A stretch of DNA of 20,000 nt, taken from contig KE561167.1 of NCBI GenBank assembly GCA_000442015.1, positions 53,673 through 73,672 of the forward strand, read 5' to 3'. Position 1 is the first letter of the stretch; each line of letters starts with the position of its first letter. The DNA is from Rozella allomycis CSF55 (lineage: Eukaryota). Both the position numbers and the translations under genes were made by a program. The notes beneath the pieces were generated by a model. That model had not been told where the DNA came from and made no database searches. It saw only the letters and a program-made list of their open reading frames with translations. Below, piece by piece: positions 439-10,321 of this stretch.

Positions 439-456
439 ATAATCAAATTATTAAAA

Positions 457-472
457 GGCTTTTCTAAAAGCC
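457..472 (+). promoter_or_regulatory. Histone mRNA 3' stem-loop (Histone3-like element)
   Basis: AAAA-GGCTTT-TCTA-AAAGCC-GCCT, 18 nt after the H3 stop: perfect 6-bp stem starting GG, 4-nt UYUN loop, A-rich 5' flank. Confidence 0.8.
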
Positions 473-595
473 GCCTGATTTTGTTGGATAACAAGTATTC
501 TTGTATTCCAACTGATTTGGTGGTAAAATAAAATCGGCTTATAAATCAACTTGTAAAACTAACTCATCTTGTTTTTTACATTTAAAATTTATTAA

Positions 596-3078
596 CTAAA
601 TTAAACCGAATCCTTCAGCGTTTTGAATGGCTGTTAAGAGTCTTTCTCTCAATTTTTCTTTGGAGCTATATTCATTTAGTAGCAATACATTGAAGCAAGT
701 ATGCGATGTAGGAAGCCTATCGCAGTCAGGACCGTTTCTAGCGATAACAAAGTTCAATTTTGAAAGACCACCGATAGGAACTCTATCAGTTCCAGTTGTA
801 AAAAAGAGTAACAATTTCTTTTCCTTTTCAGAAAAGGCGTGTACAACTTCCCAGAACCATCTGCATTATTAATGAGTATTTTAATTACTGAATGACTGTG
901 GTGTCTGGAGAGTAACCGCCATCGTAAGCTGTGTTGGCTTCCAACGCTTCAAAGTCCAAGTCGCTTGATCCACAAACTAATTGTTCCAATTCTTCAGGTC
1001 TGAATATCTTTTATCATTAAACTTTAAAGATTTTACTGTTATAGCTGTGCCTTTACAAACAGATTCAAAACCACCTCTAAAAGCTTCGAATTGTTTAAAG
1101 ACGGATTTATTGAATACAAAATCAATGTAAAGATCAACAAATTCTTTTCTATTTTCGTTGGTGAGAGAAATTTTTGAGCCGCCTGGTTTTAATTCGACGC
1201 ATTTTCTATTTCCGAATATTTCATATTCGATTTCAAAAGTTCGATCATAAAATTCTTGTACGGATTCTTTAAAGTTTAAAAGTTGGTTGAATCCTTGGGC
1301 CATCGATGGATCCAACTGCAATAAATCTTGAAATGAGATTGGCCTATTTAAGAGTTTCTTGTACAAGGCTAGAGGGAAATGAACATCCAAAATGACATTG
1401 TTGTAGATCGCTAATCCAATCAATCTTCCCACAAGACGATATTCATCTAGAGCGACTTCATCATCTTCTGGATTATTCATAAACCAACAAAGATTAGAAT
1501 CTTCATAAAGACGAAACATTCCATATTTCTGATCAAACATTTCTCTGAAAACTAATTGAAAAAATTCCTTTTGTACTCCTCCTTCATCAACGCCTTCTTC
1601 ACCAACAAATTGAACCCTCAATTGCTTCTTTAAATCTTGGGGACTTTTTAAATCTAATTGAAACAATGCGTCTCTTATAATGTGATCTCTTCTAATCTCT
1701 AATATAAGATATGGACTTTGAATCCCTGCAAACATTGCCCTAAAAAATGCATCTTGAAGCTCATGGCGCATTTGAACCATGCTCTCCACTTTCAAAATAT
1801 CAGTCTTCACAGCAGCATTCAAGATATACGAAAAATAACAAAATGAAAATCTACATCAAAACAGCAAATAATCCTTACCCATCTTTGGCTTTCCAATGAG
1901 GGAAATCCTCCTTGATGTCCAACTGTTCGTTAATCGCATCATTATAAAATTCAGCGTAATTTATAAATTCAGATTGCTCATTTGCATCATAAAGCAACTT
2001 CAATGCTTTAGTAGCTTTAACTACCAAAGTGTCCTTGTTGGGAGAATTAAGCCCAGTCAACAGTCTAATAGTTATAAACTGTTGAAATACAGCAACCAAT
2101 CTCGAAAAGGTTTCTGCATCGTAACCAGAACTAATCCAATGAGACATCAAATGTGTTGTTTTATCCCTTAAAGAATCAATAGACCCCGACTCGCGCGACA
2201 TTCTATTTTCTGTAGTTTCTTGTAATGCGCAAAGACATTCAACCAACTTTGGTAGTATTCCAGTATAAGCATCAGTCTCCATTAAAAGTGGGTTCTATCG
2301 TGAAATAGAAACATGAATTACCTCCAGGGAAATAATATAACATGCAATGTATTTGTCACTTTGCTGGCTTGCTTGGGCATATGGGTGAATAGAACTCAAC
2401 ATCGTTTCGATTCCGGTACTCATGGCGCTAACAACAACTTCTGGGCACTATATCAATATTTTTATGCGCGATTACTTGCAAAATTAATTTGTAAACTTTC
2501 CTTACAGTCTCCAAATCAACAGGACACAATCTTTCATCTATTTGCTTTTTGGTAAAGCTAGTAATCAAATTCTCAGGCCTTGAAAATACAGCATATATAT
2601 GCGACGCTAATTTCTGATAATTGCTTTCTGCCCTAGATTCATCTATCCTTCTCTCTAAATCCTCCAATTTCAATACAAGAAAGTCTATCCCTAAACCATT
2701 TTAATACTACCTTCTGTTAAAATGGACCCATTATCCAAACTTATTCCCCCAATCTCTGAATCTTCCAAGCATAAATGCTCCGTTCCTGTCTTTGCCAATG
2801 TGAGGCTTAGCGAAGTTGCCTCGGCTGCGTCCATCTTTTCCATTCCTTTTATTTCATTTATAACAACTTACGCTTACTTCCAGTAGCACAGTATATATTT
2901 TCACAATTGGCGTTAGAACAGCCAAACGTTAATTGATAATAGTAACTTGAATTATGGATGGTGTAATTAATTACCGCTTCACCAGCTGGCTAAATAGTCT
3001 CTGTTTCTCACTATAATTCAGTGATGCATTTTGCTTGGACCCTGATGGAGTCGTAAATATGTGCTCCTGGTTATTCAT
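596..3078 (-). CDS. UBE3A: HECT E3 ubiquitin ligase, UBE3A/E6AP type with N-terminal AZUL zinc finger; 8 introns of ~26-32 nt
   Basis: Spliced N-terminus [26 protein letters not shown] (AZUL; intron 2946-2974); [37 protein letters not shown]-terminal [13 protein letters not shown] with catalytic Cys and ..AEGFGLI*. Confidence 0.92.
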
Positions 3079-5374: not shown

Positions 5375-6350
5375 ATGACACAAACATCGATAACAATTGG
5401 AACCCGGAAGAGTCAGTTAGCCCTGGCACAAACAAATTTTGTAATAGAAAAACTAAAAATAGAATTCCCTGATTTAGAGATTAATGTGATTCCAATGTCA
5501 ACGACTGGTGACTTGAATTTGACACAAGCGTTACCAAAGATGAATGATAAAGCATTATTTACCAAGGAATTAGATATAGCTCTTTTAGATCGCCGTGTTG
5601 ACATGGTGGTGCATTCTTTGAAAGATGTTCCGACCACGCTGCCGCCGGGTCTTTTACTGGGTGCGATTATGGAACGAGAAGATCCTAGAGATGTTCTTGT
5701 ATGTAAAAGTAAATATGAGAAGGGCACAAAATTAATTGATCTGCCTGACGGAGCAGTCATCGGAACTAGTTCATGGAGGAGGACTGCGCAAATTAAGAGA
5801 AACTATCCAAAATTAATTGTAGAAAACATCGTAAATTTAAAAGAATTTAATCAATTAGAGAGGGAATTTGAATACACGGATGCGAAAATTAGAAGAAGAG
5901 AATTACGATGCGATTATTGTAGCTTATGCAGGAATGAAAAGGCTTAATTGGACAGAAAGAATAAGTAGCGTGATAGATTATGAAGAAATTTATTATGCGG
6001 TTGGGCAAGCAGCACTGGCAATTCAATGTAGAGAAAGCGACGCCTTTTGTTTGTCATTGTTGAATCCTTTGAATCATCAGGAAAGCTTTATTAGATGTTC
6101 AGTAGAAAGAGAATTCTTAAGGACTTTAGAAGGCGGATGCAGCGTTCCCATCGGAGTGAATTGCTTTATTTTAGATAATGAAATTCTTTTAAAAGGGGTT
6201 TTGATTTCATTGGATGGATCGAAGCAAATTGAATCTGAAAAGAAGATCTCTTTAGAAAAATGGCCTTCCCTCGGGACTTTGGTGGCAACTGAAATCATCA
6301 AGGAAGGAAGTGACATTCTGAATGAAATAAGGCGATTAAAGAACTCATAA
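5375..6350 (+). CDS. HEM3: Porphobilinogen deaminase (hydroxymethylbilane synthase); one 28-nt intron 5831-5858
   Basis: IGTRKSQLALAQT, LFTKELD, VHSLKDVPT, REDPRD, spliced IRGNLNTRMRKL, LEGGCSVPIG. Confidence 0.96.
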
Positions 6351-6370: not shown

Positions 6371-7705
6371 TTATTCCATATATTCTTTGCAAATATCTTC
6401 TAAACTTGCATTTTGATTCATCAATTTGCAAGCTCGCATAAATTCTCCTCGTATATCGTAAAGGGTATCTCTGTCTACTAAACGGCCTAAATTATGTGTG
6501 ATTTCAAAGGGATCTTCAACACAAAACCAATATTTGTCCGTCTTTGTGTTATTCTGTTATTTTTTATGTCAATATATTACTGTAACTGTCCAATTTTTAT
6601 CCTCCTTGGATAAAACAGATCCCTCTCGAATGCTAACCACTCCCTCCTTTACAGGGAAATCGTAAGCAAAATAATGAAAGATTTCAAATAGCAATTCTCC
6701 GGTTGATTGTTTATTTCTTCCGACTCCTTTCCAAACAGACTTCAACTTGGAAATATCTTTGAAGAAATAGGCGTTATACCCTTGCACATTATTTTCTCCA
6801 TTAAAATCGTGCGGTAATCGTTGAAGAACAGGTAAAATCGGAACCTTTCTAGTCTGAAATATAAATATTATCATTATAATGTAGCAATAACTATCAATGC
6901 CATTCGAATCGATTACCTGCTTAGGCTACCAAAATAAGGCTCGTTAATCTTCCGCCTTTTAGCCCAATATTTTATTAAGAATGCGACTTTTTTTAATCTT
7001 TCATCGATATCAGAGTAAGCTCTTAGCATTAAAGTATTATGTACAGCTAGAACATTATTGTACCCAATATCACAAGATATATTAGATCTCGCAGATTTTA
7101 ACTTTACAATTGGTATTCTTGCTCTAGGCAGCATTAAAATATCCTTAAAGTCGTTTTCTTATTAACTATCACTGTACATCTTACCCATTCTAAGTTTTTC
7201 GCCCAGAGTCTCAACTATTTGAACAGCTGTCAACACGGAAGCATCATCCATTACAAGGCAAAGATCCATATCGGCATTCTTTAAGCTAAATCCATTTGAC
7301 ATTGATCCAAATTTGTACAACGTAGATCCTACTACAGAAAAGCAAAGATCTCATACCCGGAAACAGTTCATGGCATATTTTTTCCAATTTTTTAAACAAG
7401 TCCTCCTTTTCCTGAATTTCATTTTCGGTCGGCGACAACTCCATCACCAGTTCGTCTATCTTGGCGGAAATCGTCTTTAAATAGCCATCATCGGGTTTTT
7501 TAATTGTTTTTGAATCAGCAGTCAATGGAAGCTTACGTATATGCTTTTCTATTCCATTTTTTACGCACGTTTCGTTTTGTTTTTTTAATGCCATGTTCTG
7601 TAGATCCCTCTCAACATCTTCAAGTGTATGTACAATCTTCTTTGCCGTATTGCTGCTAATGGATGTCTTTTGTTCTGTGGTTCTGCTGGTGGTCATCCTA
7701 TTCAT
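6371..7705 (-). CDS. Cid1/TUT4-7-family terminal uridylyltransferase; 4 introns of ~26-28 nt
   Basis: Spliced FGSMSNGFSLKNADMDLC (GS..DxD), ARIPIVK, CDIGYNNVLAVHNT, KYWAKRRKINEPYFGSLSSY, CVEDPFEITHNLGR. Confidence 0.9.
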
Positions 7706-8371: not shown

Positions 8372-10321
8372 TTATTCTAACGCTTCGAGCAATCTTTTTG
8401 TGTCAACTGTTGCATTATCTATTTTCAACAATCTTATGACTAATTGTCTTTCATGTAGAGTTAATGATGGCAAAAGCTTAGAAAATTGTTCTTCGAATTG
8501 CTCTAATGGAACTAAATCCGGTTTTATCGTTTTCTTTAATTCCGGTGATTTGATTTTAGCCTAGTATTGAGATATTAGGTTTATTACTAGTATTTCATTT
8601 AAGTTTGATTGAGTAAATTCTTTATGATTTTGCTGCATATAGTTCAATGCGTATTCGTCCGCTTTTTCCAAAACAAAATGATGACCAAAGCAATTAATTT
8701 CCGCGCCTTTATAAAATAGAGACTAATTATATTACCTAGATAGAAATCTTTGCAAGTGTATGCATCGCCATTTTCTTTTTTGAGTTTTGTTCTCTCGAGG
8801 AATTTCCCACCCAAAATTCCAGTGTTTCTTTGGTGTGGCTCAAAAACTTGAACTGATTCATCAGCAACATAAAAGCAAATCACAAATCTCCTATCTTTAT
8901 CTACCATGCGCTTCGATTTCAATTTCGCCTCAAAGCGAAGTACTATTCTATCATAGGCCATCAGTCTCTTAAAGTCTTTATGAGGAGGTTTGGGAATTAA
9001 TGAAATGCAACTACCTAACGAATCGTCTTCCAATCCAAATCCATTATACGGCGGATATGTCCTTTGAGTCATGGCTTGTAAAAGTTCGGCATTGTCATCG
9101 TCTTCAAAGGTTATTGGATCATTAAGTGTCACACAATATTGTTCTAGATAGTAATTTCTAGTAAACGCATCACAATCGCACAGGATAAATGGTCTTCCGT
9201 ACACGCTTATAATTGCCCCGATTCCCAAGTCTCTGTCAGTGTAGTAATCGTTTGGATCCTTTGATGATGCATCAGGAGAATATAATTCAGGGTTTTTAGG
9301 CAGTTTCCCGCGCCTCAGAAAGGTGTTATTTCTTTTGTCTCTACCGGAGTTTTGTTCCACATCTTCAAATATCTCAAACGTATCATCTGCAAGAAAATAA
9401 TTAATCAACATTTTTCTTGTCTCTCCAAACTTGGATAAAGTATCATCCCATAAACAATAAAACCTTAAAACATGCCGATCATGCTCTAGAAACTTTTTTA
9501 GTCCAAAGTTGGTCTCTCTTGAATGAACCGCCTTCATTCTAGAAGTAAGCTCGTGTCTTAACTCTTGGTAGGAATCACGTGGATAATGGCAATTTTCAGG
9601 AACATCAATTTTACATTTTCTTAAAAAGTCCTAATCAATTAATAGTAATGACCAAATTTACCCTAGTAAAGGCGTCACACCCAATAATTTTGAAGGTTTT
9701 TCCATAGAACACTACCGTTTTGTTGACATTCAAATCACCCAGAGTATAGTGTTGAGAGTTGGATTGACCAGGAATTGGAATTCTATGTCGGGCGATTAAG
9801 GCACCTTGAGGTATGCCACTGTTAAGTTCTCGAGGTTCACTGACATATATAGAATCATCTTCGAGGTAAAATAAAATTTGGCATCTAATTATATATGGTC
9901 TTCTTGATTTTACTTTCGAATGCGAAATTGTTCATCTCGACGCTCGTTAACAGACTCTTGAAAGTACGCATAGAATCTTAAAACCTTATTTAAGTAAAAA
10001 ATAATCTTTACTTGGCGGTCAAAGAGTATCCAAGATGGTTGGGCTTTTGCGTTTACGTCAGCGACATTTTTGTATATTAAATGTGAAGTCCGTGGCTCGA
10101 TGTTTACTTGATTTGGTATTGACACAGCCCCTTTTAATAGTAAATCATTTGCTATTACCGATTCCTGGCTTCCCTTGATGACAAAAGGCAACACCGCCTT
10201 TGTAATCAAATACATGAGACTTTCTGAACTGGTCAGGTTTCTCCTAAAGTAATATTATATCTTTTACTTTATCATAATCAAATGTTAAACCTGGAAGAAA
10301 AGGAAGGTTGCTGCCCGGCAT
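8372..10321 (-). CDS. EFHC2: EFHC/Rib72 axonemal microtubule inner protein (three DM10 domains, EFHC2-like); 7 introns
   Basis: Spliced MPGSNLPFLPG...; FDRQVLRFYAYFQE; HDRHVLRFYCLWDD; PPYNGFGLEDDSLGSC; RRFVICFYVADESVQVFEPHQRNTGILGGKFLER. EFHC1 versus EFHC2 assignment is less sure. Confidence 0.88.

Follow-up and report, generated by a model that had tools for sequence, protein, structure and literature searches.

Fungi, in the textbook view, polyadenylate their histone mRNAs and have lost the SLBP/stem-loop pathway. The same position is attributed to Lopez and Samuelsson (2008), for whom fungi are without SLBP and stem-loops, in the introduction of a bioRxiv preprint by Zhao, Bond and Ni Leathlobhair (16 October 2026; 10.64898/2026.10.14.759114; hereafter Zhao et al., 2026), and a review of 2026 on the organisation of histone genes describes stem-loops for animals and algae, naming neither Rozella nor chytrids in the text available to us. 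The preprint, which is considered here for the parts available to us, arrives at a different picture, since histone loci of a type labelled 'SLBP-SL-PAS' are assigned to Cryptomycota, Blastocladiomycota and some Chytridiomycota, the Cryptomycota loci being classed as stem-loop plus PAS (Zhao et al., 2026). For Rozella allomycis it reports stem-loops behind each of the core histones, usually some 26 nt past the stop codon, together with LSM11, a FLASH-like domain and a U7-like snRNA; an SLBP is implied by the entry of the species in a list of SLBP-encoding species, and LSM10 is given for one fungus only, which is not R. allomycis (Zhao et al., 2026). In RNA-seq data of Blastocladiomycota the stem-loops are followed by poly(A) tails: an Allomyces H2A transcript has AATATA, a variant PAS, and then a poly(A) tail behind its stem-loop, and in a Catenaria H4 transcript poly(A) follows the stem-loop with no detectable PAS (Zhao et al., 2026). 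The same source states that fungal SLBPs are without the SLIP1-binding motif, that the second G-C pair of the stem is diagnostic for the element, that stem-loop models are less sensitive outside animals, and that downstream poly(A) signals act as a fallback in animal histone genes, as seen in Drosophila mutants.

Because the preprint covers the same species, the stem-loop pathway in R. allomycis has already been reported, as far as the available parts of that source go. Its detection rules are loose, as any 6/4 hairpin (6 bp in the stem, 4 nt in the loop), one mismatch being allowed, counts as a stem-loop within 300 nt, and any of nine hexamers within 300 nt makes a locus PAS-positive (Zhao et al., 2026). 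In a genome with about 35% G+C nearly every locus will pass the latter rule. We analysed a single stretch of 20,000 nt of R. allomycis CSF55 (contig KE561167.1, positions 53,673 to 73,672), here called the window, which carries one histone H3 gene at its start. What the window adds is, on the one hand, a stricter confirmation at the level of an individual locus, through the score of a covariance model, controls for chance and the strand specificity of the signal and, on the other hand, the anatomy of that locus, where the stem-loop is followed by a second strong hairpin and then by AATAAA.

The H3 open reading frame matched the Pfam family PF00125 (Histone) with 162.1 bits (E 8.4e-48), and it was the sole histone gene in the 20-kb window according to the Pfam scan of 37 ORFs; none of these 37 ORFs contained an SLBP domain. 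A family search with the SLBP RNA-binding domain (PF15247), which covered prokaryote genomes, gave no match either, the 14 control genomes included. The space between H3 and the convergent HECT-domain gene, bounded by the stop codon of the latter, is 157 nt long (Table 1). Segment 453-476 reads AAAA GGCTTT TCTA AAAGCC GCCT, and re-reading reproduced exactly the letters and coordinates given in the preliminary description, a note made from the letters of the window before the present analysis, which had placed this element 18 nt behind the stop of an intronless H3 gene (the gap is exactly 18 nt, 439-456). All six pairs of the stem are Watson-Crick pairs around a 4-nt loop, and RNAfold returned precisely hairpin 457-472 for the 26-nt RNA 452-477 (-6.6 kcal/mol), so that both sequence and fold agree with the GG-starting 6-bp stem and the U-Y-U-N loop noticed earlier. 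Stem pairs 1 and 2 are G-C, the 5' arm is rich in pyrimidines, a U-A pair closes the loop, and the loop itself is U-C-U-A, with U at positions 1 and 3. The hairpin lies on the sense strand of a core histone gene, shortly 3' of its stop. Should the mRNA end shortly past the stem, as histone mRNAs do in animals, the predicted cleavage region would, by this analogy, be 473-478.

Table 1. Positions of the features described in the text, in the coordinates of the 20,000-nt window
Feature	Positions	Strand	Basis or remark
Histone H3 CDS, intronless, 139 aa	19-438	+	uninterrupted ORF; stop TAA 436-438
ATTAAA, poly(A)-signal variant	450-455	+	regular-expression scan; offset 11 past H3 stop; overlaps 5' flank of stem-loop
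A-rich 5' flank AAAA	453-456	+	TTAAAA directly before stem
Histone 3' stem-loop (probable)	457-472	+	stem GGCTTT 457-462 / AAAGCC 467-472, loop TCTA 463-466
Long imperfect hairpin	470-526	+	core arms 483-495 / 500-512 (inverted repeat I1); between stem-loop and AATAAA
3' flank GCCTGA	473-478	+	putative cleavage region; position by analogy with animals only
AATAAA, first canonical poly(A) signal past H3 stop	527-532	+	offset 88; 55 nt behind stem
Stop codon of convergent HECT-domain gene	596-598	-	ORF and Pfam HECT
Cid1/TUT4/TUT7-type terminal nucleotidyltransferase, multi-exon	6371-7705	-	Pfam MTPAP-like_central and PAP_assoc
EFHC1/Rib72-type gene, DM10 domains repeated	8644-10254	-	DM10_dom 207.4 and 80.5 bits, two exon ORFs

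The element has much in common with the metazoan stem-loop represented by Rfam family RF00032 (Histone3): the 6-bp stem with its 4-nt loop, the GG base, the pyrimidine-rich 5' arm and the U-A closing pair, the U-Y-U-N loop, an A-rich 5' flank, a CC in the 3' flank and, finally, the place on the sense strand of an intronless core histone gene, shortly past its stop codon. It differs from its metazoan counterparts in having G, not A, directly 3' of the stem, and in the stem GGCUUU with its three A-U pairs, against GGCUCU or GGCCCU in the animal consensus. The surroundings differ too, as an accessible purine-rich element is not evident downstream of the R. allomycis stem-loop, and a second strong hairpin and AATAAA are found there. 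With respect to protist and algal stem-loops, sampled here as 49 environmental segments (loci L004-L076), the R. allomycis H3 element shares stem, loop, spacing and the range of scores obtained with our covariance model R1 (described below), yet lies at the low end of these scores and has an atypical first base in the 3' flank. Compared with the 'SLBP-SL-PAS' loci of the preprint it is the same kind of element, the locus combining a stem-loop with poly(A) hexamers further downstream, and no difference in kind was apparent from the parts available to us.

We consider hairpin 457-472 to be a genuine SLBP-type 3' stem-loop of the R. allomycis H3 mRNA, with a probability of about 0.9 on the strength of sequence comparison. 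The alternative would be a chance hairpin, or one of a generic 3'-UTR or terminator kind, not bound by SLBP and possibly belonging with the structure at 470-526 between the two convergent genes. Frequency speaks against it. Perfect 6/4 hairpins occurred 9 times per strand in the 20 kb, and only the one at 457-472 starts with GG; the pattern GGYYYTTNTNARRRCC had a single match on both strands of the window against an expectation of 0.01, any match being found in 3 of 200 dinucleotide-preserving shuffles, and the chance expectation falls to about 3e-5 for 120 nt on the sense strand behind a single histone gene. Hairpin 457-472 is thus statistically far from chance. The stem-loop-like hairpins recorded even in Dikarya, which are without SLBP, might be taken as a precedent for a generic structure; they were, however, obtained with a far looser criterion, to judge from the available parts of the preprint (Zhao et al., 2026).

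Another point in favour of a generic hairpin is the score with the Rfam model. RF00032 aligned end to end with 452-498 at 23.5 bits (E 9.7e-5 when 161 nt were searched), which is below its curated gathering score of 34 bits, and at that threshold the site is not listed as a member. When the whole window was compared with 4227 Rfam families, RF00032 was nonetheless the best of the seven matches listed (E 0.012). The covariance-model check proposed in the preliminary description hence gave a divided answer for this H3 flank, the histone stem-loop being the best Rfam match in the window at a score that stays under the gathering value.

A second covariance model, R1, was built from 49 distinct 30-nt segments of environmental H3 stem-loops, none of them from this window. 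With filters off it matched 451-480 on the plus strand with 24.8 bits (E 2.8e-5, on a rough calibration), the second-best match in the window reaching 9.9 bits. On the minus strand the same hairpin obtained 7.2 bits, and the signal is therefore specific to the sense strand of H3, a property that argues against a generic or chance structure. R1 itself listed 48 of its 49 training segments, with 23.8-40.2 bits, one (L076) being absent at E <= 1; hairpin 457-472 would rank third lowest in this series, and R1 places it inside the range of the group, as a divergent member. The possibility that the hairpin serves the HECT gene on the minus strand was considered and rejected, given the 7.2 bits on that strand and the AATAAA that the HECT gene has 2 nt past its own stop, on the minus strand.

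The environmental loci behind R1 were the best 80 of 533 confirmed metagenome relatives of the H3 gene, 78 of which had the stop codon in the sequence. They encode generic eukaryotic H3 (88-94% identity) and served as a calibration, not as a phylogenetic comparison or a basis for covariation among orthologous 3' UTRs. A perfect 6/4 hairpin starting with GG was found 16-107 nt past the stop in 50 of these 78 loci, a range that includes the 18-nt spacing of R. allomycis. This corresponds to 5.37 hairpins per kb (50 in 9,312 nt), against a same-strand background of 0.25 per kb (45 in 182,195 nt) on the environmental contigs, and many of these 45 belong to neighbouring histone genes. The R. allomycis stem GGCTTT/AAAGCC recurs identically in two loci (L012 and L038) and the loop TCTA in four (L015, L048, L049 and L052).

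Base by base, the environmental stem-loops all have the GG/CC stem base (49/49, as imposed by the selection rule), mostly T-A as the top pair of the stem (44/49), and T at loop position 1 (44/49) and loop position 3 (47/49). A is the commonest base 2-4 nt before the stem (31-42 of 49), and the 5' flank UAAAA of R. allomycis fits this preference; the base directly before the stem, A in R. allomycis H3, is C in 32 and A in 8 of the 49. In the 3' flank GCCU the second base is C in 45/49 and the third in 27/49 environmental stem-loops. The base directly after the stem is the outlier, as the G of R. allomycis occurs in 1 of 49 and A in 42. Hairpin 457-472 agrees with the consensus at every position except the first base of the 3' flank, which speaks against a chance or generic hairpin.

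Six environmental loci (L023, L036, L041, L042, L056 and L069) had no perfect GG-starting 6/4 hairpin behind the H3 stop. In all six, R1 gave sense-strand matches (18.6-26 bits) close behind H3, 29-33 nt in length as compared to the 30 nt of the model, which suggests, from sequence comparison, stem-loops with a mismatch or with an altered loop or stem length. A strict 6/4 pattern search consequently undercounts real stem-loops.

The fold of the whole intergenic region is a further argument that can be turned towards a generic hairpin. The unconstrained minimum free energy (MFE) structure of 436-560 (-28.1 kcal/mol, z -3.94, none of 200 shuffles being equally stable) omits the histone hairpin and draws the bases of its 3' stem arm into the longer hairpin 470-526; folded alone, 470-530 reaches -25.5 kcal/mol. 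When the histone stem-loop was enforced, a shortened second hairpin at 473-521 remained and the total was -27.0 kcal/mol. The two structures can thus coexist (-27.0 vs. -28.1 kcal/mol), which speaks against a generic hairpin. Taking score, fold and Dikarya hairpins on one side, and rarity, strand specificity, consensus and coexistence on the other, a structure that does not bind SLBP appears improbable at this place. The second hairpin could be a terminator-like element or a part of the H3 3'-end signal, and the available parts of the preprint make no mention of it.

The preliminary description had also proposed that an early-diverging organism of the fungal line retains the ancestral SLBP/stem-loop pathway. 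The fungal-line source was confirmed, since R. allomycis is placed in Fungi; Rozellomycota by the NCBI taxonomy, so that a holozoan or an unrelated protist is excluded as the source, and retention of the pathway is supported by the hairpin and, in its available parts, by the preprint (Zhao et al., 2026). The stem-loop would have been inherited from the opisthokont ancestor, and would later have been lost in Dikarya.

How the H3 mRNA ends is a separate question. In the reading that we prefer, the H3 pre-mRNA would fold the 6-bp/4-nt hairpin 18 nt past the stop, and the Rozella SLBP would bind it via its defining features, namely the basal G-C pairs, the pyrimidine-rich 5' arm, the pair U-A that closes the loop, U1 and U3 of the loop and the A-rich 5' flank. 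A cut a few nt 3' of the stem, at about 476-478, would then leave the H3 mRNA with the stem-loop as its end and no poly(A) tail, and AATAAA 527-532 would represent a fallback or alternative end. We give this whole mechanism, including the stem-loop-terminated mRNA end, an even chance; SLBP binding and cleavage are steps that we infer. An end of the animal type is preferred because the spacing to the stop is close and conserved, and because AATAAA is unusually distant from the H3 stop in a window where such signals hug the stops. To our knowledge, the only job of LSM11 and U7 is the cut of histone pre-mRNA. The preference is also due to the reported retention of LSM11 and of a U7-like RNA in R. 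allomycis, as given in the available parts of the preprint (Zhao et al., 2026).

The position of poly(A) signals in the window can be judged from 11 other gene ends, which were inferred from ORFs and Pfam only, two of them being ORFs without any family. AATAAA lay at offsets of 0, 0, 2, 4, 7, 7, 14, 48 and 58 past the stop in nine of them; in the Cid1-like gene it was found at offset 200, and none was present within 250 nt past the stop of the porphobilinogen deaminase gene. The background of AATAAA in the window is 1.45 per kb per strand. The earlier observation that AATAAA is close to most other stops and far from that of H3, beyond the hairpin, holds in these numbers (0-58 in 9/11 vs. 88). 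As a picture of the poly(A) signals of H3 it was correct for the distant canonical AATAAA, and it overlooked the variant ATTAAA at 450-455.

That distant AATAAA is the starting point of the main competing account, in which the stem-loop binds SLBP and is internal to the 3' UTR, the H3 mRNA being polyadenylated via AATAAA 527-532 as in 'SLBP-SL-PAS' loci; SLBP would then regulate stability, export or translation and not end formation. The presence of the signal 55 nt behind the stem, the classification of Cryptomycota loci as stem-loop plus PAS, and the Allomyces H2A and Catenaria H4 transcripts with both stem-loop and poly(A) all speak for it (Zhao et al., 2026, in the parts available), as does the lack of an evident accessible U7-binding element at H3. 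The PAS rule of the preprint, nonetheless, is one that nearly every locus passes at about 35% G+C; AATAAA 527-532 may be a chance occurrence, about 0.18 copies being expected over the 123 nt that separate the stem from the HECT stop; the reported LSM11 and U7-like snRNA point to cleavage by a U7 snRNP; and animal histone genes too carry fallback poly(A) signals (Zhao et al., 2026, in the parts available). Polyadenylation downstream of the stem-loop is, on balance, a substantial possibility to which we attach clearly less credence than to an mRNA ending at the stem-loop. Poly(A)-selected libraries, if such were used for the Blastocladiomycota RNA-seq data of the preprint, would miss ends at the stem-loop. 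Among public sequencing runs, five DNA runs of one organism contained 0.44-0.91 of the words sampled from the window, and no RNA run contained more than 0.05. When Logan contigs of four RNA-labelled runs (one of them an RNA run by guess) were aligned to the window at a likeness of >=85, they covered pieces of the conserved H3 coding region, most of them less than 95% alike and therefore derived from other organisms, and practically nothing past about 445, so that they speak neither for nor against any of these H3 ends.

The overlooked ATTAAA suggests another route, where the stem-loop is real and the ordinary cleavage and polyadenylation machinery, directed by ATTAAA 450-455, cuts just behind it, so that a poly(A) tail added by a canonical or non-canonical polymerase would follow right after the stem-loop. 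With the usual spacing of 10-30 nt, cleavage would fall at about 465-485, at the stem or immediately past it, and the Catenaria H4 transcript, with stem-loop and poly(A) and no detectable PAS, would be compatible with such an end (Zhao et al., 2026, in the parts available). Against this, ATTAAA largely follows from the required A-rich flank, three extra letters (ATT) being enough to complete it, and the signal at the other gene ends is AATAAA, ATTAAA being found at 1 of the 11 and at offset 103. A role of ATTAAA in forming the H3 end is accordingly very unlikely in our judgement.

If the H3 mRNA ends at the stem-loop, as we prefer, an animal-type cut would involve pairing of U7 with a purine-rich downstream element. 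No accessible element of this kind was evident behind the H3 stem-loop, in agreement with the earlier statement that no purine-rich U7-binding element (HDE) is visible: the sole purine-rich stretch downstream, 486-495 (8/10 purines), is buried in the 5' arm of the stable hairpin, and on the predicted fold hairpin 473-521 would compete with U7 pairing. The suggestion in the same description that the pathway may be U7-independent is neither strengthened nor weakened by this, and the preprint gives a U7-like snRNA, LSM11 and a FLASH-like domain for the species (Zhao et al., 2026). U7 itself (RF00066) had no match in the window among the matches listed at E <= 10, a search that covers these 20,000 nt of the genome. 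It is conceivable, and in our opinion unlikely, that the H3 mRNA ends at the stem-loop with no conventional pairing between U7 and a downstream element, hairpin 473-521 substituting for that element. If true, this hairpin would position the cut or stop transcription and would represent a fungal variant of histone 3'-end formation, with a hairpin as the downstream signal, which is not described in the available parts of the preprint (Zhao et al., 2026).

The H3 protein itself has some peculiarities. With 139 aa it is longer than the usual 136, and it reads differently where 74 of the 78 environmental H3 sequences have the standard-length motif GGVKKPHR(Y/F)RPG. Its C-terminus RGERSN extends one residue beyond the ERA or ERS ends of nearly all 78. 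The 139-aa form was found in none of the best 80 of the 533 metagenome H3 loci.

Other genes of the window agree with its assigned source. The porphobilinogen deaminase exon 5375-5794 (140 aa) was 100% identical over its full length to 'porphobilinogen deaminase [Rozella allomycis CSF55]'; the matches that followed, at <=63% identity, came from Mucoromycota, chytrids, Basidiobolus and animals. The stop of this gene (6348-6350, plus strand) and that of the convergent Cid1-like gene (6373-6371, minus strand) are 20 nt apart, and as neither gene has a nearby AATAAA, their 3' UTRs must overlap the coding sequence of the other gene.

The Cid1-like gene is about 6 kb from H3. The best PDB matches of its product were human TUT4 and TUT7, Cid1 of S. 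pombe and plant URT1, and in the alignment of its last exon, EDPFEITHNLGR, to Cid1, EDPFEISHNVGR, the histidine of Cid1 is kept, which we take to be the UTP-selecting residue of that enzyme. In animals, TUT7 uridylates histone mRNAs as their decay begins; the proximity of the Cid1-like gene to H3 is probably a coincidence. GLD2-like polymerases are not listed for Cryptomycota in the available parts of the preprint (Zhao et al., 2026).

The gene with repeated DM10 domains encodes what is presumably a ciliary microtubule inner protein of the EFHC1/Rib72 type. Its nearest ESM Atlas clusters were all DM10 proteins, which confirms the family and gives no taxonomic resolution, and its presence is consistent with a fungus that has flagellated zoospores.
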